Origin: Escherichia virus TH58
Strand: one strand, 5' to 3'
Length of the DNA stretch: 64,000 nucleotides
Sequence record: MT446423.1
Position 1 is the stretch's first letter. Every line of letters begins with the position of its first letter. A model generated the notes under the pieces. The model was not told where the DNA came from. It did not search any database and worked only from the letters and a program-made list of their open reading frames with translations. The translations under genes were made by a program, and so were the position numbers. Positions 2,924 to 55,955 of this stretch are shown piece by piece.

Positions 2924-2989
2924 TGGCTCGTTTAAATAAACGACAGCTTAAGAAAGCCCACAAGAAACGTATTGACCAGCTATTTAAAA

Positions 2990-3310
2990 ATGATAACAGT
3001 GAGCTTATTTGTAAGCTCCTGTCTAATCAGCTTCAGCATGTTAGTCAATTATCAGACCATCTACATATGGTTGATTGGGTTGCAAATGAAACTTGATTTT
3101 TATGCATGGCAAAAAGCCGGGAGACCGGCTAATAAAGCATTCGGCTCTGATGGATATAGTACTAGACTCCACTGGAAATTTAATACTCCGGATGATTATT
3201 CTCCGGTAATAATTAACGGTGATGTTGTTATATTAGCTAAATTCGGATATTTTATTGTCCCGAAGAAATTTATTATAAATACACCTGTAATTAAACAACA
3301 AAGGAGTTAA
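2990..3310 (+). CDS. hypothetical protein with N-terminal TM segment
   Basis: track ORF starts at TTG 2972; first ATG at 2990; hydrophobic N-terminus. Confidence 0.3.
   Translation: MITVSLFVSSCLISFSMLVNYQTIYIWLIGLQMKLDFYAWQKAGRPANKAFGSDGYSTRLHWKFNTPDDYSPVIINGDVVILAKFGYFIVPKKFIINTPVIKQQRS
3274..3281 (+). promoter_or_regulatory. late promoter (TATAAATA) for soc
   Basis: exact TATAAATA 32 nt upstream of soc ATG. Confidence 0.5.
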
Positions 3311-7591: not shown

Positions 7592-8901
7592 CATTTGATG
7601 ATTTGACTGAAGGCCAGAAAAACGCCTTCAACGTTGTTATGAACGCTATTAAAGAAAAGAAACATCATGTAACTATTAATGGGCCTGCTGGTACAGGTAA
7701 AACAACCCTTACTAGATTCATCGTTGAAGCCCTTATTTCTTCTGGAGAATCAGGTATTATTTTAGCAGCCCCTACACATGCTGCTAAAAAGGTTCTAAGC
7801 AAACTTGCGGGTCAAGAAGCATCGACTATTCATAGCATTCTTAAAATCAACCCAACTACATACGAAGAAAACGTATTGTTTGAACAGAAAAAGGTTCCCG
7901 ACTTAGCCTTGTGTCGTGTACTGTTATTTGATGAAGCGTCAATGTGCGACCGTTCTCTGTTTAAAATAATGTTAGCTAGTATCCCTAAATGGTGTACAGT
8001 AATTGGAATCGGCGACAGATGCCAGATTCGTCCGGTAGACCCAGGCGAATCAACTGCGTATCTAAGTCCTTTCTTCACTCACAAAGACTTCGTGCAATGC
8101 AACCTTACAGAAGTTAAACGTAGCAATGCACCAATTATTGATGTTGCTACTGATATTCGTAATGGCAAATGGATCTACGATAAAGTAGTTGATGGGCACG
8201 GTGTTCATGGATATACAGACCTTAAATCGTATATGATGAACTATTTTAACGTCGTTAAAACTCCTGAAGACCTTTTCGAAAATCGAATGATGGCATTCAC
8301 AAATAAGTCGGTGGACAAGTTAAATTCAATTATTCGCCGAAAACTTCTTGAAACAGAAAAACCATTTATTAAAGACGAAGTCATTGTTCTACAGGAGCCA
8401 TTTACTAAGACATATAAGCTAGATGGTAAAAATATGACCGAAATGCTTTTCAATAACGGCCAATTCGTTCGTATTCGAGATGCTGTAGAAACGTCTACAT
8501 TCGTTAAAGCACGTGGTGTTTCAGGCGAATATATGATACGATACTGGAATCTTACAGTAGAAACATATGGGGATGATGAAGAATATATCCGTGAAGATAT
8601 AAAGGTTATTTCTTCTGAAGAAGAGCTTTATAAATTTAATTTGTTTTTAGCTAAGACCGCAGAAACATACAAATTTTGGAATAAAGGTGGTAAAGCTCCA
8701 TGGAGCGAATTCTGGGATGCTAAACGTATGTTCACTAAGGTGAAGGCACTACCAGTATCAACTTTCCATAAGGCCCAGGGTATGTCTGTTGACACGGCCT
8801 TTGTTTATACACCGTGTATCCATTATGCTGATTCAGAATTAGCTAAACAGTTATTGTATGTCGGCACAACTCGTGGTCGTTTTGACGTCCATTTTATTTG
8901 A
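7588..8901 (+). CDS. dda: Dda SF1B DNA helicase
   Basis: 437 aa; MTFDDLTEGQKNAFN.. Walker A GPAGTGKT; near-colinear with T4 Dda. Confidence 0.9.
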   Translation: MTFDDLTEGQKNAFNVVMNAIKEKKHHVTINGPAGTGKTTLTRFIVEALISSGESGIILAAPTHAAKKVLSKLAGQEASTIHSILKINPTTYEENVLFEQKKVPDLALCRVLLFDEASMCDRSLFKIMLASIPKWCTVIGIGDRCQIRPVDPGESTAYLSPFFTHKDFVQCNLTEVKRSNAPIIDVATDIRNGKWIYDKVVDGHGVHGYTDLKSYMMNYFNVVKTPEDLFENRMMAFTNKSVDKLNSIIRRKLLETEKPFIKDEVIVLQEPFTKTYKLDGKNMTEMLFNNGQFVRIRDAVETSTFVKARGVSGEYMIRYWNLTVETYGDDEEYIREDIKVISSEEELYKFNLFLAKTAETYKFWNKGGKAPWSEFWDAKRMFTKVKALPVSTFHKAQGMSVDTAFVYTPCIHYADSELAKQLLYVGTTRGRFDVHFI

Positions 8902-10210: not shown

Positions 10211-10708
10211 ATGATTACTATTGGTGAAATCCTTCGTGTATCTCCTGCTTCTCGTTCTAAAGCTGCAGGTCGTCTGGTTGAAGTAGCAGGGCTTCGTACT
10301 AACGGCATGGGACGTGTTAAAGAAGTTAAAGTTCGAATCATGCCCAGTTTTGGCGGACAAGAGGCCCAGTATGCTTACGTAAGTCCTAAATTCCTGGAAA
10401 AACATATACGAGTCCAATTTGCTTCAAGCGAAGAAGTTGCACCTGCACACTTTGCTTCAAACGATATCGTTGAGCCTACTACACAGTTCAAATGGGCCCT
10501 TTGCAAAGGCGTTGAATTTATAACCGATAAAGAATTTGATTACATCGACGAATACGGTTATCCAAGCAAAACTGATATTATGTGCGGCTTCATTAGTGAC
10601 CAATGGGTTGAAGATGGTAAAAAGTTATACAATATTGTATTTTTAGGTGACTTCCGAGTTGTTGAAGAATCTGAAATCACTCGCTATGTTTCTCCTCGTA
10701 AAGCTTAA
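10211..10708 (+). CDS. hypothetical protein, paralog 2 of tandem triplet
   Basis: shares N-terminal ASRSK..LVEV and C-terminal GFISDQWVEDGKKLYNIVFLGDF with paralog 3; start at 10211 aligns with paralog 3 (an ATG at 10148 is also possible). Confidence 0.55.
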   Translation: MITIGEILRVSPASRSKAAGRLVEVAGLRTNGMGRVKEVKVRIMPSFGGQEAQYAYVSPKFLEKHIRVQFASSEEVAPAHFASNDIVEPTTQFKWALCKGVEFITDKEFDYIDEYGYPSKTDIMCGFISDQWVEDGKKLYNIVFLGDFRVVEESEITRYVSPRKA

Positions 10709-10717
10709 GGAATTATT

Positions 10718-11137
10718 ATGAATATTGCAAATCTCTCTATTGGTGATTATGTACACGTATCAGATGCTTCTCGCTCTAAAGTTGTCGGGAAGTTGGTCGA
10801 AGTTCTTTCTGTGAGTGATCCGGTTTTTGGACGTAACGAAGTTAAAGTTCGTGACGCTGATGGTAACATTGGTTACGTTAAAAGCCAATTCATTGAACCA
10901 GAAGAAAAAGCGTTCAAATGGAAACTGTGCAGATCGGTTTTAGTTGTAAAAGACCATGAATTTACTATTGCTGCTGCAACTGACGGGTCTCCATGGAAAA
11001 CTAAGCAAATAGCCGGATTTATTAGCGACCGTTGGGTAGAAGATGGTGTTAAGCTTTATAACATCGTTTTCGCTGGGCAGTTCATGGTAGTTCCTGAGTT
11101 CCAAATCAAAAAATATTGTCCAGCATCTTTTGCATAA
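10718..11137 (+). CDS. hypothetical protein, paralog 3 of tandem triplet
   Basis: GFISDRWVEDGVKLYNIVFAGQF module; AAGGA RBS. Confidence 0.55.
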   Translation: MNIANLSIGDYVHVSDASRSKVVGKLVEVLSVSDPVFGRNEVKVRDADGNIGYVKSQFIEPEEKAFKWKLCRSVLVVKDHEFTIAAATDGSPWKTKQIAGFISDRWVEDGVKLYNIVFAGQFMVVPEFQIKKYCPASFA

Positions 11138-11141
11138 AGTT

Positions 11142-11170
11142 GTTTACTTCTCCTCTAGATGTGTTACTAT
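11142..11170 (+). promoter_or_regulatory. T4-type early promoter
   Basis: GTTTAC, 17-nt spacer, TACTAT, TAGACCTATC box. Confidence 0.5.
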
Positions 11171-11198
11171 AGACCTATCAAAACAAGAGGAGAATATT

Positions 11199-11426
11199 AT
11201 GAAACGTCAAATCATTAAAAATGTAACTACTGATTCAAACATCGATGAGTTTGAAGATGTTCTGTTTAATCCTGATTTAGTTGTTGTACAGAAAAACTGG
11301 ACCGAATTTTTATGCTACACCGAAGTGGTTTACGTTTACGAAAAACTCGGTGATGAAATGCCTATCTACGGTATCTTCCGTGAAATCACTGAAAACGGTA
11401 CAACTTATTGGAAGGAAACTTACTAA
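11199..11426 (+). CDS. hypothetical small protein
   Basis: ATG 11199 after GAGGAG RBS, downstream of early promoter. Confidence 0.45.
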
Positions 11427-19801: not shown

Positions 19802-19831
19802 GTTTACAACTAAGTAGGACTATGATATAGT
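19802..19831 (+). promoter_or_regulatory. T4-type early promoter inside inverted repeat (PeSL-like)
   Basis: GTTTAC, TATAGT; arms TAGGACTA/TAGTCCTA flank the -10. Confidence 0.55.
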
Positions 19832-19857
19832 AGTCCTATCTAAAAGAGGATAACATC

Positions 19858-20121
19858 ATGAAATTTAAATTTTTCTACGCAAAACATAAAGTAACAGGCG
19901 AATTTGTTTCAATGTACAACACTGCAGATGACGAAGGGATGATTTATACCCATTTGGGACTATCTCATTGGGACTCAGACGTGCCTTATATGTCATCTGA
20001 AGCCGAAATAACTCGTCTGGTTAATGGACATATGAACGACCATTTTAGTGTTATTCTTTCTAAAGACCTTAAAGAGGTTATCAACAAAGGATATATGGAA
20101 CTCGCGGAAGTTGAGATATGA
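19858..20121 (+). CDS. hypothetical protein
   Basis: 87 aa ORF downstream of early promoter. Confidence 0.45.
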   Translation: MKFKFFYAKHKVTGEFVSMYNTADDEGMIYTHLGLSHWDSDVPYMSSEAEITRLVNGHMNDHFSVILSKDLKEVINKGYMELAEVEI

Positions 20122-20204
20122 GCTCTAAAATGTGGATCGGAATATGGTTGCTTAGTATCCCTATGATTTGTATAATATTTTCAATTGCATTGAGGTACTT
20201 ATGA
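20118..20204 (+). CDS. putative 28-aa single-TM peptide
   Basis: ATGA overlap with upstream stop; hydrophobic; not in ORF track. Confidence 0.25.
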   Translation: MSSKMWIGIWLLSIPMICIIFSIALRYL

Positions 20205-20311
20205 AAAATGCACTTCTTATTGTACTAAGAACAATTTGCGATACAGGTTTTTACATCGCATGTTCGTTCACCGGAACATGGTTGGCTTTAACATATTTTA
20301 ATGTAATTTAA
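20201..20311 (+). CDS. putative 36-aa hydrophobic peptide
   Basis: ATGA overlap with previous peptide; not in ORF track. Confidence 0.25.
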   Translation: MKNALLIVLRTICDTGFYIACSFTGTWLALTYFNVI

Positions 20312-20313
20312 TT

Positions 20314-20343
20314 GTTTACATCAAGGTAGGATTATGGTATAGT
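20314..20343 (+). promoter_or_regulatory. T4-type early promoter inside inverted repeat (PeSL-like)
   Basis: GTTTAC, TATAGT; arms GTAGGATTA/TAGTCCTAC. Confidence 0.55.
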
Positions 20344-20371
20344 AGTCCTACTGAAACATGAGGAACACAAA

Positions 20372-20574: not shown

Positions 20575-20604
20575 TTGTACAAACTCTTGAGAGCAGAGTA
20601 TAAT
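20575..20604 (+). promoter_or_regulatory. T4-type early promoter inside inverted repeat (PeSL-like)
   Basis: TTGTAC, TATAAT; arms GAGAGC/GCTCTC. Confidence 0.5.
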
Positions 20605-20648
20605 GCTCTCATGGATTACAAAAACATTAATCAATTGAGGAAATTAGC

Positions 20649-22765: not shown

Positions 22766-22841
22766 GTGCCCTAGCCTTAGGATTTCTCGGTGCAATAGCT
22801 GCACTAGTGATTTGGCTGTATTGGTTAGACAAACATGATTA

Positions 22842-22876
22842 GGGAGCTTCGGCTCCCTTTTGTGCATTTTTTTCTC
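22842..22876 (+). terminator. rho-independent terminator after gene 52
   Basis: GGGAGC-TTCG-GCTCCC hairpin plus T-rich tail. Confidence 0.65.
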
Positions 22877-22884
22877 ACAAAACA

Positions 22885-22913
22885 GTTTACATGTGCTTCA
22901 AACATGATATTAT
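22885..22913 (+). promoter_or_regulatory. T4-type early promoter upstream of motA
   Basis: GTTTAC, 17-nt spacer, TATTAT, TAGACCTATC box. Confidence 0.55.
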
Positions 22914-22952
22914 AGACCTATCAAAACAAAACAACCAAATTGGAGAAATAAA

Positions 22953-23585
22953 ATGTCTAAAGTTACTTACATCATCAAAGCTTCTGAAAACGCTCTGAAT
23001 GAAAAAACTGCTGCAATAATGGTTTATATCATTAAGAACAACTTCACCACTGCTGCCAATGTCCGTGAAGCTCTGGAAGCAGAATACAATGCATCAGTTG
23101 TTAACTCTAACATTGGTGTATTGATTAAGAAAGGTTTAGTCGAAAAATCAGGTGATGGACTTGTAGCAACAGGCGAAGCAATGGATATTATCCAAAAAGC
23201 CGCAGACCTCTTTGCCCAAGAAAATGCTCCAGAACTTCTTCAGAAACGTAACACCAGAAAAGCACGTGGAGTTACTCCTGAAATGCATGAATTAGCAAAC
23301 TTTGTTTTTGAAAATATTAAAGATAAAGTTGAAGTTAAAGAAATTGGCGAAAACCGTAGTAACTTAGAAGTTCGATTTGCAAAACGAGTTCTAGGTATTC
23401 GCCAGATCGAAATTCGTCGAGATGGTTCTCTTAGAATCTTTGCGTACAACATGTCAGAAACTGAATCAAAGCTGTTTACTTCTCTTGAAAATGATGTTAA
23501 GATTAAAATCGGTGGTAAATATACTTACATTGACTTCCCTAATGTGTCCAAAGAAATCATTACCCTTGTAACTAACGTACTGTGA
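22953..23585 (+). CDS. motA: middle-transcription activator MotA
   Basis: 210 aa; MSKVTYIIKAS..NSNIGVLIKKGLVEKSGDGL matches T4 MotA. Confidence 0.85.
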   Translation: MSKVTYIIKASENALNEKTAAIMVYIIKNNFTTAANVREALEAEYNASVVNSNIGVLIKKGLVEKSGDGLVATGEAMDIIQKAADLFAQENAPELLQKRNTRKARGVTPEMHELANFVFENIKDKVEVKEIGENRSNLEVRFAKRVLGIRQIEIRRDGSLRIFAYNMSETESKLFTSLENDVKIKIGGKYTYIDFPNVSKEIITLVTNVL

Positions 23586-23925: not shown

Positions 23926-24215
23926 ATATAAAGACAATCGAAGAGCAGTATAAAGATTACTCTAAGTTGGTTCATTCAGTAAAAACAATCAGCATTATTA
24001 ATCTTCAGGTTAATAATTTAACTCTTAATTTTGGTAATGAACTGGCTAAATATTGTTGTATTATTAATACAAATCTAACACCAGTTGATATGTATGGTTC
24101 ACGCCAAACTGCTGATATCAAGATTTCAGGTGAATCACTGAATGATGTATTAGATACCGCCGCCAAGATTCGAGCTTTCTGTGCAGTTAACAATTATGAG
24201 GCCTTAATCAAATGA
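23922..24215 (+). CDS. hypothetical protein
   Basis: 97 aa; ATGA coupling. Confidence 0.45.
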
Positions 24216-27256: not shown

Positions 27257-30200
27257 TTAGGCTAAGCGAACGATATAGTTAAAAGCAATGTTTTTAACAG
27301 TGTTTTCGGTGTTACCGGTGCTGTTAACAGTAATTGTATGGCCATGAGCAGCAATAGAAAACGTGTGAGTATGTGAACCTATAGCCACTGTATGGTTATG
27401 TGTACCGATATCAGTATAGTGACTATGTTCTGGAGCGACTGATGTAGTACCTGACCACGTGTGTGAGTGTAGACCATCCTCGTTAGTCCATGTCGTTGCT
27501 GTCTGACCGGAACTGGATGCTGCAAATCTACCGGACTGAACGTTAGCGTTGTTACCAAGTGAAGCAGTGTGTGCGTGCCTACCGTCAGTACTCGTTGTAC
27601 CGGATACTGTATGAGTATGTGCACCAGCGGTGTTAGTATGTTTACGGCCTAGATCTGTTGTACTAACAGTTTTAGTCCCTAAATCAGTAGCGCTTGTAGT
27701 ACCAGACAAAGCAGTAGTGGATGCAGAAGCAATATGGGTATGGGACTTAATACCATCAGCTTCAGCACTCAACACTGCGCGACCGCTCGGTTTACCCTTA
27801 ATAGTCTGCCCTCGCATATCAGGAATTACGCCACTAGGATACGCAACAGCTAGCTTTGGATATGCAGACTTATCAAAGGTCTGGCCTTCCATTAAAGCAA
27901 ATCCGGCTGGAACTGAATCACTCGGCCATGGAATCGGAGCACCGACCGGATAAGGTATCTGGGCATCAGAATACATCATATACACTTGTCCGAGTATATG
28001 GCCTGCAGGTAATTCTTCTACTGGTGTTTGGGCGCCGCTGTTAATCCCAACAACTGACACGGTGGAGTTGGCTGAGCACTCATATTCAACCACCAACGAG
28101 TTTGCATAGGCCCCAACATATACATAAACATCATACACATCACCGGAGGTATTCATGGTAGCAATATTAGTGAAACCCTTATCGGTACGAGACCATAAAG
28201 TAGCGTTAATGGCTTTAGGATTATTATTGCCTGTACGAAGAACAATTTCTGTAATAGTAGCTTGTTCCGGAGAATTGGCATTAAATCCACTACCACCCAT
28301 TACTTTAAAGCTTGCAGTCCCTACAGATTGTGGAATATTTACTGTAGCAAATTTATACCATCCAGCGCTTGCGCCTGCGGCACTCCAACCACCCGTATTA
28401 ACCTTACGGTCTAAAGTGGTGTTCAAGTTAGAAAAGTTACCAGTACCGCCAGTAATATTACCATCAGTTCCTAATTTAGTATTTCCTATTTTAAGAGGCT
28501 TAGTAATATCGACAGTATCAGAGTTTAATGCAATACCATGGGCGTAGGTGTAATTATGCATACGAACAATGTTTCCACCATCACCAATACCTACATACCA
28601 TTTTGTAACATCTGCTTTGCGTCCTTGGATGAAGTTAGAAGACTCTTGTGTTGGAGCATTTATTCTAATAGCATCGGCGGCAGTATTAACTGTTATACGC
28701 TGAGATGCTGTAGTACCTGATGTATCTACTTTAAACTTGCCCGCACCAATATCAACAACGTGATTCATAGAAACTGCGCCGGTGCCTAACTCAATACTAA
28801 ACGGGCGAAGGTTGTTTATTTCACCATTTTCCCCTTCATTTTCGTTAGTTGGGATAATATGTAATGATGTTTCTGAGCGTCGGAAAATGGCACCATAACG
28901 AGAGTTCCAAATTCTTAATGCATTGATGATGCCACCGATTTTAACTGGTCCATTTGCAGTTAAATTGTTGGTAAGTAAATTACCAAATGTCACAGTTTGA
29001 CCTTCACCGACGCCAAGGTTATTACGGGCAGCAGCTACAGAAGTCGCTCCAGTACCACCTAAATTAATCGGTTGAACACCAGATACAACTTCCTGCCATG
29101 CAGTCCACGATCCGCCTTGTCCGTAGCGAACATATACGCCTAAAGCATTACCGCTCTTTGTAGTAAAGGTCTGCTTACATGACCAGTCGCTATCGGAAAC
29201 TTTACGCAAAGACAGAACTTCGAGAACAAAGTTTCCATCAGAGGTAGGTTTGTTCAATATATTAGAACCACCACCAGAAGATGTACATTTATACAGCTTA
29301 CGAGTACCTAAATCTGAACGTCTAATAATCAGGCTATTAAGGTCAATAGTCTGGTCAGTAATATCAACTGCTTCTTCAACACCACGGTAAGTTTGCTTAA
29401 AAACTAAATCACCTTCTACTTCAAGACCGTTAGGTTTAATTAGAATATACTTACTAGGAGATGGAGTAACAACTGTAGGTTGATAACCAAATTGCACGTG
29501 TCCTTCAGGAGTAATTTTAAGCATTGCTACACCAGCGCCATCTCCAATTTTACGAGCAAGAGTTAATCTGCTATACTTATCAGATTCCTCTGAACCTAAA
29601 TCAACAAACGTTCCGTTGGTGTTTTCGACTTTTAAGTTAGCGTTAATAGTCAAGTTACCGGTCATGGTATCGCCGGTTTTACTTACTTTCTTATTATCAC
29701 CAGCAACAATGTCATTTTTAATAGAAGTCAAATAGTTGTTAAGGTTACCACCAAACAATGAACCTGACGTAATGTTACCGTCTTTGGTTAGCATCGCAGC
29801 CCCGCCGATTTTAACTGCTACAGGAACCTCAAATTGGCCATCAGAGCGGAAACTGTACTCGCCGGCAGAAACACCACCTGTGGTTTTTGCCCGAATACGT
29901 ACAGTGCCTAGGTCTGAGGTGTTTGGAGTAGCCCAAATCACACCACGTTCTATACCATTGTTATTTTCAAACCAAACATGTGTATTCGCATCGACATCTG
30001 GAGCACGAGCATAATAAGAACCAGACCGAGCATAATAAGTTGTTGCAATTATAGCGGCTCCAGAATTAATACCGCCCGTGGTATTAATACCAGCTAGAGT
30101 CTGAACATACGCACCATTTAATGTTAATTTACCGTTGATAGTCACATCACCATCGACTTGCCCACCTTTAGCGAAGCCAAGGTCGATAATTTGACCTGCA

Positions 30201-39471: not shown

Positions 39472-39876
39472 ATGGAAATCGGAAAATCTTATATCATTAA
39501 CCCTTTATTTAAAGACGACTTTGTTCAAGAAGCACCACATAATAACGCTAAGATGTTAAAACTGATTGAACTCCATGGGCCTAGTTTTGTTGTAAACGGA
39601 ATGGAACCTGATTATGATAGCGATACGTCAAACGTAGTAAGTGTAACTATGGAAGATGGTACTGTATGTTCTGCCGGTGGTGAAATTGAAACTTATTTTG
39701 AGATTTATCCCGACGAGTTTAAATACTTTATTGAGTACTTTACTGAGGTAGATTTAGTAAAGCCTCAACCTACTAACGAAGGTATAACTTTAGGTGTAAC
39801 AAAAATCCATTGTATCGTAGATGAAACCAACGTCGACGAAATCATCAAACTTTTGCAAAAAACTTTTAAAAAGTAA
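39472..39876 (+). CDS. hypothetical protein (frd.x region)
   Basis: 134 aa after early promoter. Confidence 0.5.
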   Translation: MEIGKSYIINPLFKDDFVQEAPHNNAKMLKLIELHGPSFVVNGMEPDYDSDTSNVVSVTMEDGTVCSAGGEIETYFEIYPDEFKYFIEYFTEVDLVKPQPTNEGITLGVTKIHCIVDETNVDEIIKLLQKTFKK

Positions 39877-39905
39877 TATACAATCAGATAGGGTTATGTT
39901 ATAGT
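39877..39905 (+). promoter_or_regulatory. possible early promoter inside inverted repeat
   Basis: weak -35 TATACA, TATAGT -10, arms ATAGGG/CCCTAT. Confidence 0.35.
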
Positions 39906-39940
39906 AGCCCTATCAAATCAAAAGTGAAGCGGAGAATAAA

Positions 39941-40189
39941 ATGAGATTGCAACGCCAGAGCATCAAAGATTCTGAAGTTAGAGGTAAATGGTACTTCAAC
40001 ATCGTCGGTAAAGACGCTGAACTCCTTGAACAAGCTGAAGAAGCTTTACGCGAAATGGGTTGGAACGAAGAATGTGACAGATGTCCACTCTACGAAGATG
40101 GTGAAAGTGCAGGATTCTGGATTTATCATTCTGACGTCGATCAGTTTAAAGCTGATTGGAAAGTTGTTAAGAAAAATCTGAGGAAATAA
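39941..40189 (+). CDS. hypothetical protein
   Basis: 82 aa after promoter-like element. Confidence 0.45.
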   Translation: MRLQRQSIKDSEVRGKWYFNIVGKDAELLEQAEEALREMGWNEECDRCPLYEDGESAGFWIYHSDVDQFKADWKVVKKNLRK

Positions 40190-45694: not shown

Positions 45695-46105
45695 ATGAAA
45701 GATATCGCCGCCGAATATTCCTTTATTAAATATACAGAATTGGAGCTATTAGAAGATGCAACAATTAAAACAGTTGATGTCCCTAATAAGAAAAATGTCA
45801 TATACGCTATTGCTATAGATGACGAACTTGTGTATATTGGTAAAACCAAGAATTTAAAGAAACGCATTAACTATTATCGAACAGCCATAAATCGAAAAGA
45901 CCAGACTTCAGATTCAAGAAAATCACTTATGATTTTGGATGCCTTAATGCAAGGCAAAAAGGTTGAATTCTGGGCCCGCCAATGTTTTGACCTTTCAGTC
46001 ACCAACGAACTTGGTTCAATGACCATCGCAACAATGGACCTTGAAGAACCGCTTTTTATCAAAAAGTTCAACCCGCCTTGGAATATCCAACATAAGAAAA
46101 AGTAG
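45695..46105 (+). CDS. denA: endonuclease II (GIY-YIG fold)
   Basis: 136 aa as T4 EndoII; VIYAI...LVYIGKT GIY-YIG-like motif; between nrdB and RNA ligase. Confidence 0.6.
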   Translation: MKDIAAEYSFIKYTELELLEDATIKTVDVPNKKNVIYAIAIDDELVYIGKTKNLKKRINYYRTAINRKDQTSDSRKSLMILDALMQGKKVEFWARQCFDLSVTNELGSMTIATMDLEEPLFIKKFNPPWNIQHKKK

Positions 46106-46134
46106 TTTACACACCACAAGGATTGTGGTACAAT
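46105..46134 (+). promoter_or_regulatory. T4-type early promoter with spacer hairpin
   Basis: GTTTAC, spacer CCACAAGGATTGTGG, TACAAT. Confidence 0.5.
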
Positions 46135-46152
46135 TTAAAAAAAACTAACTGA

Positions 46153-48479: not shown

Positions 48480-48694
48480 CTAAAGAACAGCATGAATACA
48501 TTAAAGGGCTTATCTATGAATCTGAAATGGCGGCTATGATTTATGGGCGACAGATTCAACGATTAGAATCTTTGCCTCCGACTAATGACCGCTTGTTAGT
48601 TCAGTCTCGTGCTAATCTGAAAAATGAATATCAGAATAAGTGGGCAGTAGCTACTAAAGCTCTTCATGAGTATATTGGATCTTTAGTAAAATAG
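48470..48694 (+). CDS. hypothetical protein
   Basis: 74 aa. Confidence 0.45.
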   Translation: MPMTKEQHEYIKGLIYESEMAAMIYGRQIQRLESLPPTNDRLLVQSRANLKNEYQNKWAVATKALHEYIGSLVK

Positions 48695-48723
48695 TTTACA
48701 AACTCTCGGGAGCGGAGTATAAT
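48694..48723 (+). promoter_or_regulatory. T4-type early promoter inside inverted repeat (PeSL-like)
   Basis: GTTTAC, TATAAT; arms GGGAGC/GCTCC. Confidence 0.55.
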
Positions 48724-48751
48724 GCTCCTATGGATAATTGAGGAAATCTAA

Positions 48752-49050
48752 ATGAAAACATTACTAGAGAATTACATCAAACGGTCCGATGAGTATATTG
48801 ATATCTGCCGTGGAATGTCACTTGCCAATTATGACAAAGATGCAGCAAAGGCATTAGATGAAGCAGGTAAAGCTCTTCGTAAAGCTGCTAAAGAAAAAGG
48901 GGTGGATTTGCAACAACTCAAAAGTCATATGATTAAATTTATTTCTTCAAACGTTAGAAGTAAGTCAATTAATAAAAACGTTGCTGAAATTAATAAAGAC
49001 CGTCGCGAGCATAACATTCGTATTCTTGAAACTTTCTTAGGAATAAAATA

Positions 49051-50819: not shown

Positions 50820-50849
50820 GTTTACAACATGGTGGAGTTGTGATACTAT
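50820..50849 (+). promoter_or_regulatory. T4-type early promoter with spacer hairpin
   Basis: GTTTAC, spacer ACAAC..GTTGT, TACTAT. Confidence 0.5.
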
Positions 50850-50877
50850 AACTCTACCAACAAATGAGGAAATAGAA

Positions 50878-51114
50878 ATGCTAAGTGAAAACCCAATTAC
50901 AGTACACGAATTTCAGATTAAAGTAAAAGAATTTGCTCAAGCACTCATCAATAAAGTGTCTGAACGTTTCCAAGATGCAACATTACGAGTTATTCAAGAA
51001 TCTCCACGTTCTTTTCTCATAATCGTTAATCCTAAAGATGGTGACCAAATTACTAATCTTAAATTAGGCAGTGATGGTCTTGTTGAAGCAACTCGAGTAT
51101 ACGGAACACTATAA
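50878..51114 (+). CDS. hypothetical protein
   Basis: 78 aa after early promoter. Confidence 0.45.
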   Translation: MLSENPITVHEFQIKVKEFAQALINKVSERFQDATLRVIQESPRSFLIIVNPKDGDQITNLKLGSDGLVEATRVYGTL

Positions 51115-51234: not shown

Positions 51235-52227
51235 ATGTTACCTGTCGTCAGAAAACTTATTTCTCCAAAAGAACTGGCTGAGATTATTCCTTTGTCGGAA
51301 GCTTACGCATCACAAGTGGCTTCTCATCGCGAACAAGTTAATTCGATTATGAATGGTGAAGACCCACGCAAACTTATTGTTGTAGGTCCTTGTTCAATTC
51401 ATGACCCTATTGCTGCTGTTGAATACGGCAAACGACTGGCTGAACTTCAAACTCGTCTTCCTAATGTTCTGTTAGTGATGCGCGTTTATTTTGAAAAGCC
51501 TCGAACTACCGTAGGTTGGAAAGGTCTTGTAAATGATCCATATCTTGACGGAAGCTTTGATATGAACCACGGTCTTATAGTTGCACGAACATTGTGTCGT
51601 AAACTTCTACGTATGGGACTTCCATTAGCAACTGAAGTATTAGACCCATTCACGATTAAGTATCTTTCTGGTATTTTCTCATGGGTTGCTATTGGCGCCC
51701 GTACGACTGAAAGTCAGACACATCGTGAAATTGCTTCAGGTCTACCGATGTGCGTAGGCTTCAAGAACGCAACTAATGGTTCTATTAAAGTAGCTACAGA
51801 CGCGATGTATAGTGCCGCCTGGCCTCATCGGTATATGGGTATGGACGTCGATGGTACTGTAGGCATTGTTGAAGCTGAAGGTAATCAGAATACGCATATC
51901 GTATTGCGTGGCGGGACTAACGGCCCGAACTATCATTCTTCTGATATTCAAGAAGCTTCTAACAAAGCAAGTGCATTAGGTCTGAATCATTATGTAATGG
52001 TTGACTGTAGCCATGCAAACGCTGATGGGTATTATAGCAATCAAATTGGTATTGGTAAAAATTTAGCAGCTAATGATTTGGTCAAAGGAATTATGATAGA
52101 ATCATTCCTACATGAAGGAAATCAAAAAATTTCTGATAATATGTCCTATGGCGTTTCCATTACCGATGCGTGTATCAGTTGGGAACAAACTAAAGAGCTG
52201 TTAACTTATATTAATAAGGTTCAATAA
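51235..52227 (+). CDS. class I (AroG/AroF/AroH-type) 3-deoxy-D-arabino-heptulosonate-7-phosphate (DAHP) synthase
   Basis: 330 aa; blocks VGPCSIHDP, RVYFEKPRTTVGWKGL, IGARTTESQ and VESFLHEGNQ match E. coli AroG active-site regions; TAAGGA RBS. Confidence 0.8.
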   Translation: MLPVVRKLISPKELAEIIPLSEAYASQVASHREQVNSIMNGEDPRKLIVVGPCSIHDPIAAVEYGKRLAELQTRLPNVLLVMRVYFEKPRTTVGWKGLVNDPYLDGSFDMNHGLIVARTLCRKLLRMGLPLATEVLDPFTIKYLSGIFSWVAIGARTTESQTHREIASGLPMCVGFKNATNGSIKVATDAMYSAAWPHRYMGMDVDGTVGIVEAEGNQNTHIVLRGGTNGPNYHSSDIQEASNKASALGLNHYVMVDCSHANADGYYSNQIGIGKNLAANDLVKGIMIESFLHEGNQKISDNMSYGVSITDACISWEQTKELLTYINKVQ

Positions 52228-54313: not shown

Positions 54314-54318
54314 TTTTA

Positions 54319-54341
54319 GGGAGACCGAAGTCTCCCTTTTG
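54319..54341 (+). terminator. rho-independent terminator after small basic ORF
   Basis: GGGAGAC-CGAA-GTCTCCC hairpin plus TTTT. Confidence 0.65.
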
Positions 54342-54373
54342 TGCGTTTAGGGCAGAAAAAGTTTAAAAAAGAT

Positions 54374-54402
54374 GTTTACTCTCCTGTAGGATGTGTTACT
54401 AT
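54374..54402 (+). promoter_or_regulatory. T4-type early promoter
   Basis: GTTTAC, 17-nt spacer, TACTAT, TAGACTTGTACC box. Confidence 0.5.
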
Positions 54403-54443
54403 AGACTTGTACCACCTAATCAATAAAACAATCGGAGAATAAA

Positions 54444-54812
54444 ATGAAAATCAATCTGAACTCATACATCAAATGTAAAGACCACGATGGTTATAAAGCT
54501 ATCGAAATTAAAGAATTCCAGTGGATGTTATACAAAGAGCAATTTGAGTTCGTAGGTTGTATGACACCTGAAGGTCCTTCAGATGATTTCTCTTGGAAAA
54601 TTGTGTTAGCAAACTTTTTCACAGGTGACACATACGAATTAAAAACTATTATTACCGGTAAAATTCGTTCAGAAACATATGTTGACGAAGAAACTGGTTA
54701 CTCTGAAGATGTTACATGGTATCAAAATGGACGCATTACAGCAGATAACCTGATCGAAAAAATGAAAGCCAAAGGTGTTTTAAATTTAGACAATTGGATT
54801 AAAGTTGCATAA
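54444..54812 (+). CDS. hypothetical protein
   Basis: 122 aa; own early promoter cassette; GGAGAA RBS. Confidence 0.5.
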   Translation: MKINLNSYIKCKDHDGYKAIEIKEFQWMLYKEQFEFVGCMTPEGPSDDFSWKIVLANFFTGDTYELKTIITGKIRSETYVDEETGYSEDVTWYQNGRITADNLIEKMKAKGVLNLDNWIKVA

Positions 54813-54816
54813 AACA

Positions 54817-54845
54817 GTTTACTTTGGTACAGGTTATGTTATTAT
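54817..54845 (+). promoter_or_regulatory. T4-type early promoter inside inverted repeat (PeSL-like)
   Basis: GTTTAC, TATTAT; 10-bp arms TTGGTACAGG/CCTGTACCAA flank -10. Confidence 0.55.
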
Positions 54846-54886
54846 AGACCTGTACCAACAAACAACTTAAACATCTGGAGAATAAA

Positions 54887-55252
54887 ATGAACTACACCAA
54901 CTTCGAACGTAAATATGTTTCTAACGGTATCGCTGGTTCTATTGATACGATTTGTTTATGGAAACATAAAAATGGTTCAGTATGTGAAATTGAGCAGTAT
55001 ATGACTCCTAATTACGTTTATATGCGATTTGAAAATGGCATCACGGTTTCAGTCACAATGGAAGGTTCCAACTTCAAAATTGCATTAGATGACGATTTCC
55101 GTCAACGTGATTTAGGTACTCATCCTTGCTGGAACGGTGTTAATCGTAAACTTCTGGTTAAAACTTGGATTCGTCATATCCTGAGTAACCGAGCTAAACC
55201 TGAACATCTCGAAGCAATCTTTGATGTAGTTCTTAACGAATTCGATATCTAA
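54887..55252 (+). CDS. hypothetical protein
   Basis: 121 aa; own early promoter cassette. Confidence 0.5.
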   Translation: MNYTNFERKYVSNGIAGSIDTICLWKHKNGSVCEIEQYMTPNYVYMRFENGITVSVTMEGSNFKIALDDDFRQRDLGTHPCWNGVNRKLLVKTWIRHILSNRAKPEHLEAIFDVVLNEFDI

Positions 55253-55287
55253 TTTAACTGGGAGCCGAAGCTCCCAGTGAGGAAATT

Positions 55288-55902
55288 ATGTTTAAAGTTA
55301 ATACTTTTTATAAAATGAATTTTAAAAATGGGGATATTACTCCACGCCTTAAAAACATGTTCTCATATGACCTTATTGAGCCTTTTGAAGTTTTAGAAGT
55401 TACTGATGCCGGCTCGGTTTGTGAAATTAGAACTTCTGAAGGTAAAATTTATCAGGCAGGTGTTGGTAAATTTAGTAATTGTTTTACTTTAATATTCTCG
55501 ACCGATTTAGATGAGCATTTTATTGAATGTCCTAACCCTAAGGTCTACGAAGTTCCACATCAAGAAACTAAGAAAAACGGCCCGCACGAATATACGAAGG
55601 TTGAAACTCCTCACGGCGTGATGTGGCGTCATAACTCTCCTTTTGGAAGTAAAGGAACATTTGCTCAACCATCTAAACCGTATGACGATGAAAAATACAT
55701 CGTCGTCTTTTTATCTGAACAGGGTACTCAAGACCGTGGATGCCAACGAAGTGGTTTACTAAGTGAACTTGAAGCTCATAACCAAGCACGTGAATTCGTT
55801 GAGAAAAATCCTGGTTCTGAAGCTCTAGTCATGAAAGCAATTACTCAATATATCACTGCTCAACCTGTTGTTCATCCGGTAGAAATTAATTTCGTTAAGT
55901 AG
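55288..55902 (+). CDS. hypothetical protein
   Basis: 204 aa. Confidence 0.5.
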   Translation: MFKVNTFYKMNFKNGDITPRLKNMFSYDLIEPFEVLEVTDAGSVCEIRTSEGKIYQAGVGKFSNCFTLIFSTDLDEHFIECPNPKVYEVPHQETKKNGPHEYTKVETPHGVMWRHNSPFGSKGTFAQPSKPYDDEKYIVVFLSEQGTQDRGCQRSGLLSELEAHNQAREFVEKNPGSEALVMKAITQYITAQPVVHPVEINFVK

Positions 55903-55932
55903 TTTACATCCAAGGACGGATTAGAGTATAAT
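55902..55932 (+). promoter_or_regulatory. T4-type early promoter with spacer hairpin
   Basis: GTTTAC, spacer ATCCAAGGACGGAT, TATAAT. Confidence 0.5.
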
Positions 55933-55955
55933 GATTTCTTTAGTAAGTGGAAAAT

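Follow-up and report, generated by a model that had tools for sequence, protein, structure and literature searches.

The 64,000-nt stretch of Escherichia virus TH58 analysed here (the window) is collinear with Mosigvirus phages of the RB69/JS09 group, for example ST0, at ~97% identity. The only large block strongly diverged from ST0 is the gp37 region (27400–30162, − strand), which carries the distal long-tail-fibre gene; homology there falls to 73% or is lost, as expected of a host-range determinant. At seven sites in the window, the −10 element of an early promoter is bracketed by the arms of an inverted repeat (Table 1). Three of these sites (19802, 20314, and 20575) lie in the denB–ndd interval, one (39877) lies 3′ of gene 32 at 39.9 kb, and three (48694, 50820, and 54817) lie in the pseT–cd–30.x region at 48.7–54.9 kb. 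All embedded-stem copies lie on the + strand, as do the genes involved, and the tail-fibre block at 26–36 kb has none.

An earlier sequence-only reading had listed six of these sites, and all six were found where it had placed them; it missed a seventh of the same type, 50820–50859, which was picked up by the folding test. That reading gave the −35 element as GTTTAC, which is correct for four of its six sites, the exceptions being 20575 (TTGTAC) and 39877 (TATACA), and it described the repeats as perfect, which applies to 19802, 20575, and 54817, with G·T wobbles found in the remaining three. It also placed the sites in variable regions, and we indeed observed same-orientation copies in the small-ORF regions of denB–ndd, downstream of gene 32, and of pseT–cd–30.x.

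Results

Architecture of the promoters

Each site reads, in order, −35, left arm (within the spacer), a loop that includes TGnTATA or GAGTATAA, and right arm. This last element begins at the final −10 base or just after it and spans the discriminator and the expected +1; at most sites, the −10 and the 3′ arm share one base, the last of the former and the first of the latter. The stems at the seven sites are 7–13 bp long with loops of 8–13 nt, so that the −10 falls within the loop or the 3′ arm. Their RNA folding energies range from −11.3 to −17.9 kcal/mol, with z-scores between −2.3 and −6.4 relative to dinucleotide-preserving shuffles (−13.2 kcal/mol, z −4.2 at 19802; −16.3 kcal/mol, z −6.4 at 39877). 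No perfect inverted repeat in the window has longer arms than that at 54817 (54824–54858).

Five of the seven promoters have GTTTAC(A/T) and TAnnnT elements with a spacing of 16–17 nt counted from the TTTACN hexamer, and the −35 boxes of 20575 and 39877 match at 4/6 positions. A TGn extension of the −10 is present at 5/7 sites. The 30 nt 5′ of the −35 are 67–83% AT, compared with a window mean of 62%, and the gap from the stop codon of the upstream gene to the −35 is −1 to 12 nt across the seven sites (12 nt at 19802; at 39877 the −35 adjoins the stop codon). An SD and ATG follow 40–70 nt 3′ of the −35 at each site and open ORFs of 66–148 aa. An Rfam scan of the window gave zero matches, and in the T4 GenBank record neither promoters nor terminators are annotated for this region.

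Promoters with hairpins in other positions also occur in the window. In a spacer-hairpin class, stems of 4–7 bp (AACC/GGTT, CCAC/GTGG, CACC/GGTG, ATCC/GGAT, ACAC/GTGT) enclose a near-constant loop, A(A/T)GGA(T/C); unlike the −10-bracketing class, it has no sense-strand bias. T4 has a promoter of this class 3′ of denB, with a spacer hairpin and not the embedded −10 stem seen in the window. Composites of a canonical terminator followed by an early promoter are included in Table 1.

Table 1. Early promoters, stems, and associated features, with positions as in the window
Feature	Span	Strand	−35	Left arm	−10	Right arm	Remarks
Embedded stem 19802	19802–19838	+	19802–07 GTTTAC	19815–22 TAGGACTA	19826–31 TATAGT	19831–38 TAGTCCTA	Perfect repeat; between denB and an 87-aa ORF; ATG at 19858
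Embedded stem 20314	20314–20351	+	20314–19 GTTTAC	20326–34 GTAGGATTA	20338–43 TATAGT	20343–51 TAGTCCTAC	One T·G (U·G in RNA); 5′ of ndd.1 homologue (66 aa)
Embedded stem 20575	20575–20611	+	20575–80 TTGTAC	20588–95 TGAGAGCA	20599–604 TATAAT	20604–11 TGCTCTCA	Perfect repeat; degenerate −35; 5′ of ndd
Embedded stem 39877	39877–39914	+	39877–82 TATACA	39887–96 GATAGGGTTA	39900–05 TATAGT	39905–14 TAGCCCTATC	One T·G; degenerate −35; extended −10 TGtTATAGT; ATG at 39941
Embedded stem 48694	48694–48729	+	48694–99 GTTTAC	48708–14 GGGAGCG	48718–23 TATAAT	48723–29 TGCTCCT	5 perfect bp and two G·T (G·U); after pseT.1; ATG at 48752
Embedded stem 50820	50820–50859	+	50820–25 GTTTAC	50830–39 TGGTGGAGTT	50844–49 TACTAT	50850–59 AACTCTACCA	One G·T (G·U); after cd.3; ATG at 50878
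Embedded stem 54817	54817–54858	+	54817–22 GTTTAC	54824–34 TTGGTACAGGT	54840–45 TATTAT	54848–58 ACCTGTACCAA	11-bp perfect stem; ATG at 54887; right-hand repeat of ORF122 cassette
Promoter 54374	54318–54448	+					Without embedded stem; paralogue of 54817; left-hand repeat of ORF122 cassette; preceded by canonical terminator 54318–37 (GC stem, then TTTTGTG)
Stem-upstream-of-promoter composite	22841–22955	+					Canonical terminator 22841–58, then early promoter 22885, UTR, and ATG
Promoter 11142	11142–11201	+					Early promoter, chimera of the two promoters flanking ST0 gp104; deletion/insertion junction
Promoter with spacer hairpin	46105–46139	+					Early promoter; small hairpin within spacer (CCACAAGGATTGTGG, 46114–28)
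Spacer-hairpin promoters	9600–13; 46114–28; 47298–311; 55908–21; 61735–48
Terminator-then-promoter composites	3557/3593; 22841/22885; 39365/39414; 54318/54374
Candidate mini-circle cassettes	19802–20314; 54374–54817

Excess over chance and covariation of the arms

Among + strand promoters in the window that match GTTTAC-N16–18-TAnnnT, 6/21 fold with p ≤ 0.008 in shuffles that keep the −10. The sequence-only reading implied that inverted repeats would exceed those of shuffled sequence, and they do: perfect inverted repeats with a stem of at least 7 bp number 80 window-wide, compared with 47.9 ± 7.9 in dinucleotide shuffles. Promoters were also drawn from IMG/VR with patterns that fix the promoter bases only and leave the arms free. 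Among the matches listed, the number of consecutive pairs in register was bimodal, either ≤ 5 or 7–14. Contigs were counted as T4-like when they had a tblastn match to a window protein, a definition under which the control group probably retains some T4-like contigs; among the matches listed, 16 of the 54 unique promoters on T4-like contigs had at least 7 consecutive pairs. From base-pairing odds, we estimate that runs of at least 7 pairs would be expected by chance in < 1%.

We then chose 14 unique sequences by the invariant −35 side and loop only (GTTTACAAACTC...GAGTATAAT), again leaving the arms free. The stem was present in 14/14, with 94.6% of positions paired as opposed to 37–58% when the partner was slid, and 0/500 shuffles matched the observed value. 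At three pairs, both partners have changed (GC/AU, AU/GC, and GC/CG/AU/UG), and pair 15:36 is G·U in 7/14 sequences. The true register still outscored all shuffles and every slid alternative when 37 promoters were taken as a mixed set. This one register accommodates at least 20 different arm sequences, with complementarity kept. The site upstream of ndd has arms that differ by clade: the window has TGAGAGCA/TGCTCTCA, T4 has GGCCG/CGGCC, and a further clade has CGAGAATC/GGTTCTCG. In the T4 ndd.1–ndd spacer (T4 locus 2121–2180), the hairpin GGCCGtgtgtattcatgCGGCC stands at the position equivalent to 20575 and the promoter hexamers are weak, which would fit a “degraded PeSL” whose stem has outlived its promoter.

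To judge from these comparisons, the embedded stem is a real feature that is under selection, and about one-third of the early promoters in this RB69-like T4-type phage have such a conserved stem-loop with the −10 box in the loop.

Strand on which the pairing is selected

The sense RNA is more stable than the antisense RNA at 7/7 window sites (−13.6 vs −6.8 kcal/mol at 20314; −16.9 vs −8.1 kcal/mol at 50820) and in 22/27 significant hairpins. The helices contain 18 G·T pairs, compared with 6 A·C (p = 0.011; the sequences used here and in the covariation and exclusion tests are phylogenetically related, and the p-values are optimistic). As DNA, the hairpins are weak, with −3.7 to −10 kcal/mol and z-scores down to −1.6. 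The G·U-biased wobbles and the sense-stabler folds thus suggest that pairing is selected in the sense (+ strand) RNA. Transcription by sigma70 polymerase starts ~7 nt 3′ of the −10, which would fall here on the last base of the 3′ arm. Since the expected +1 lies at the end of the 3′ arm, RNA containing the whole stem would arise only by read-through from the upstream gene, and we infer that the pairing is under selection in this sense read-through RNA.

Relation to terminators

Counts of T in the 8 nt that follow each stem stayed below 5 for all 32 helices (mean 1.47), and a terminator scan of the window called no embedded stem on the + strand. As there is no U-tract after them, the stems are not canonical intrinsic terminators, and canonical intrinsic termination at these positions appears unlikely. 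Terminators on the antisense strand were ruled out by the weaker antisense folds and by the lack of a T-run on that side.

In position, the canonical terminators of this phage resemble the embedded stems, lying after a stop codon and before the promoter that follows. Their stems are GC-rich and 6–9 bp long, with UUCG-type tetraloops and a T-run, whereas the embedded stems have 8–13 nt loops that hold the −10 and no T-run, and the two are mutually exclusive. A terminator within 90 nt upstream was found for 1/64 stem promoters compared with 22/138 stemless ones (p = 0.0016, an optimistic value as the contexts are related). The exclusion is also seen within a paralogous pair, in which promoter 54374 has a terminator and no stem while 54817 has an 11-bp stem and no terminator. 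The hairpin is not obligatory, since 116/138 stemless promoters have no terminator nearby.

We think it likely that the stems belong to PeSL-type composite cassettes in which the hairpin attenuates or insulates read-through RNA in place of a terminator, and in which the unit as a whole is also a recombination substrate. Each cassette would consist of a strong host-sigma70 early promoter adjoining the stop codon of the gene before it; its −35 would be of the GTTTAC type and preceded by an AT-rich tract, and its −10 would often carry a TGn extension. Among the promoter positions, only the spacer and the discriminator/+1 would be free to vary, and these would have been selected for mutual complementarity. 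RNA reading through from the upstream gene would then fold into a 7–13 bp hairpin with the −10 box as its loop, and this hairpin may act as an attenuator, as a 3′-end barrier (to 3′-exonuclease), or as an insulator, standing in for the separate intrinsic terminator seen before other early promoters. Transcripts from the promoter itself would have their 5′ end at or near the final base of the 3′ arm and would never include the hairpin. Finally, the ~75–90 nt promoter/5′UTR/ATG unit, repeated in the same orientation, would allow homologous recombination to gain or lose the small ORFs between copies.

The embedded stem is thus read here as probably a compact terminator substitute for read-through early RNA. 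We infer from sequence the promoter activity, the start position, and the effect of the hairpin on read-through RNA, be it termination or stabilisation/processing; for the terminator role, we extrapolate from a single RB49 stem assayed by others. Early read-through RNAs of T4 are abundant, nuclease-sensitive, and important (PMC2988021); a search of the available literature found no mapping of transcript 5′ or 3′ ends for this phage, T4, or RB69.

A different mechanism, which we consider unlikely, is that the stem is a U-tract-independent insulation device of packed early regions, in which the hairpin over the next −10/+1 stops, pauses, or trims read-through. If this were true, the promoter would be shielded from occlusion or the polymerase would be handed over for local re-initiation, and the intrinsic terminator would be replaced functionally by another mechanism.

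Cassette borders and recombination

The sequence-only reading took the sites to mark the borders of accessory gene cassettes. This held in part: direct repeats do flank three recent ORF indels, but across 38.5–60.5 kb promoter boundaries as such were not indel-enriched. When the window was compared with ST0, direct repeats of the promoter/UTR/ATG unit flanked 2/5 indels outside the tail fibres, those of gp104 and gp121, which are extra ORFs of ST0 (ST0 loci 10600–11250 and 22860–23300) that the window does not have. At the gp104 indel, window promoter 11142 (11142–11201) is a chimera of the two ST0 copies. In ST0, the −35 of the right-hand gp104 promoter is degenerate (ATGTAC), and its −10 is enclosed by a separate stem, GGTCTAT/ATAGACC. 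At the gp121 indel (window 22841–22961), the repeats are ~85 nt long and ST0 has two flanking promoter copies. The third event concerns ORF122 (54444–54812), which is missing in AV114: the indel lies between promoters 54374 and 54817 with 75 nt of shared junction, and AV114 has a single promoter copy at this position. For two of these three indels, the promoters are stemless in the window, while the ORF122 event involves the stem promoter 54817. As far as these junctions indicate, the stem is unnecessary for the recombination events observed.

Homology with more diverged relatives breaks exactly at 48747/48752, 50878–80, 54817, and 39869–39931; an insertion is present exactly at 48747/48752 in three diverged loci and at 50878–80 in 5/7. 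Across 38.5–60.5 kb, comparison with seven diverged loci gave no indel enrichment at promoter boundaries (6/9 vs 22/31, Fisher p = 1), by a breakpoint criterion (net length change of at least 150 nt) that is crude and misses equal-length replacements. The comparison loci were centred on DenB and PNK; a search for Ndd loci gave three near-identical loci only. The repeats are plausible recombination substrates and, on these counts, neither the sole nor the preferred breakpoints.

Several other variable segments were noted. Small ORFs at 2925–3272 and 23927–24209 are missing from ST0 and have no promoter repeat at their junctions, the latter segment being an ATG-to-ATG insertion relative to ST0. 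An aroG-like DAHP synthase gene (phospho-2-dehydro-3-deoxyheptonate aldolase; 51235–52227) is common to the window, ST0, AV114, and ATK47 and is missing from 7/7 diverged T4-like loci compared; its borders have no promoter. A 9-bp perfect inverted repeat without a T-run, ACTGGGAGCcgaaGCTCCCAGT (55257–55278), lies at the left edge of a cassette with a 204-aa ORF (55288–55955), in place of which AV113 and AV114 have a different, shorter ORF; the right edge of this cassette is the ATG after promoter 55902. In the terminator before promoter 54374 (54318–54337), the loop is CGAA in the window and TTCG in AV114 (8415–8432) and the stems are identical; the terminator loop has thus been inverted between close relatives.

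That inversion indicates that hairpin-associated DNA events occur, and it bears on the proposal that the stem acts as DNA, with a cruciform or single-strand hairpin serving as a structure-specific recombination signal (for example, for endonuclease VII) that gives the cassettes their mobility. In the same direction point the promoter repeats at indel junctions in this phage and, in RB49, a mini-circle crossover mapped to a stem loop along with speculation about a stem-binding protein (PMC2839356). The symmetry of a DNA duplex, however, predicts no strand bias, whereas G·T exceeds A·C and sense folds exceed antisense folds; moreover, the DNA hairpins are weak and their 8–13 nt loops are ill-suited to cruciform extrusion. 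Of the three recent indels, two are at stemless promoters; promoter boundaries are not enriched for indels; and the 75–90 nt of homology at the junctions is, going by the same source, sufficient by itself for T4 homologous recombination (PMC2839356). We regard a DNA-level signal as quite unlikely.

Other explanations of the complementarity

The complementarity could have no function and be a product of chance or of promoter paralogy. Sites 19802/20314/39877 are indeed paralogous, as are 20575/48694, and the right arm is largely the conserved discriminator of the clade, which is present in stemless promoters too. This would leave unexplained the outcome of the shuffle tests and the bimodal run lengths, the compensatory changes inside otherwise identical sequences, the exclusion between stems and canonical terminators, and the stem at the ndd site, which three clades have kept although their arms are unrelated, T4 with its degenerate promoter hexamers among them. 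We therefore hold absence of function to be very improbable.

Equally improbable in our view is that the hairpin discriminates at translation between read-through and self-initiated transcripts, as do the hairpins of T4 gene e, soc, and 49 (PMC3014915). These share with the window sites the logic of a promoter inside hairpin DNA, with the structure present only in long read-through transcripts, but they sequester the SD/AUG and carry a late internal promoter, whereas in the window the RBS is untouched and the promoter is an early sigma70 one. In predicted folds, self-initiation leaves the SD–AUG of the transcript a little more accessible at 6/7 sites; the differences are small, as expected of any longer RNA, and are reversed at 48694 (0.61 vs 0.35). 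The 3′ arm ends 15–45 nt 5′ of the SD, and the predicted folds contain no pairing with the SD/AUG. Occlusion of the SD/AUG by the stem was thus unsupported by either folds or accessibility.

Although a palindrome centred on the −10 has classic operator geometry, an operator for a dimeric DNA-binding repressor overlapping the −10 is scarcely credible and was ruled out by arm variability, given that at least 20 arm sequences share register and complementarity with no common recognition sequence, that double compensatory changes occur beside invariant promoter bases, and that strand-biased wobbles are tolerated.

Discussion

Comparison with known PeSLs

PeSLs are defined by a stop codon at the 5′ edge, an AT-rich tract, a sigma70-like early promoter, a stem-loop, and an SD and ATG at the 3′ side (PMC2839356, PMC4122927). 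The sequence-only reading had matched the sites to these cassettes, correctly so: every sequence feature of the definition is present. The PeSLs of RB49 and phi1 fall into five positional subclasses, in one of which the stem overlaps the −10, and are backed by lacZ evidence of promoter and terminator activity and by mini-circles (Arbiol et al, 2010, PMC2839356).

RB49/phi1 PeSLs share their layout with the window elements. Their commonest subclasses have the stem between −35 and −10 or over the −10, and both are found here; G-T pairs in the stems, tandem repeats among small ORFs, and repeats flanking ORF indels are likewise common to the two (PMC2839356). RB49 and phi1 are Krischvirus, whereas the window is Mosigvirus. 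The −35 is a near-perfect TTGACA in RB49/phi1 but GTTTAC in the window, and the window stems are not GGGG/CCCC-rich like those of RB49/phi1 (PMC2839356). Compared with RB49/phi1, the register of the window stems is essentially fixed, centred on the first −10 bases. Promoter and terminator activity and mini-circles are experimental findings in RB49/phi1, while the window elements are known from their sequence (PMC2839356).

The promoter type of PST/T4, TTTACW-N17-TAYWAT, is shared with the window (Comeau et al, 2014, PMC4122927), and the worked example, an ndd.4/.5 exchange, concerns the same denB–ndd locus. The stems of PST/T4 lie just 5′ of the promoter, an arrangement that also exists in the window beside the embedded subclass, and window sites 20575 and 39877 resemble the “degraded” PeSLs with a weak −35 described in that study of PST/T4 and nt-1/KVP40 elements (PMC4122927). 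RB69-type phages are not named in PMC2839356 and were not found in the accessible portions of PMC4122927, and a literature search gave no other description of such elements in them.

Significance

By layout and register, the window elements classify as PeSLs of the −10-overlapping subclass: they are of a known kind, with fresh Mosigvirus members, and reveal no new kind of system. This confirms an extension of the PeSL architecture to the RB69/JS09 (Mosigvirus) clade, which includes widely used therapeutic and model phages. To the two studies of PeSLs, the present comparison adds covariation, the fixed register, the sense-RNA wobble bias with its tolerance of G·U and not of A·C, and terminator exclusion, lines of evidence absent from the accessible parts of PMC2839356 and PMC4122927. 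In practice, the elements can be used in annotating the early transcription units of these phages. Labelling the embedded stems as ordinary Rho-independent terminators should be avoided, and ORFs between tandem copies can be flagged as likely mobile accessory cassettes.
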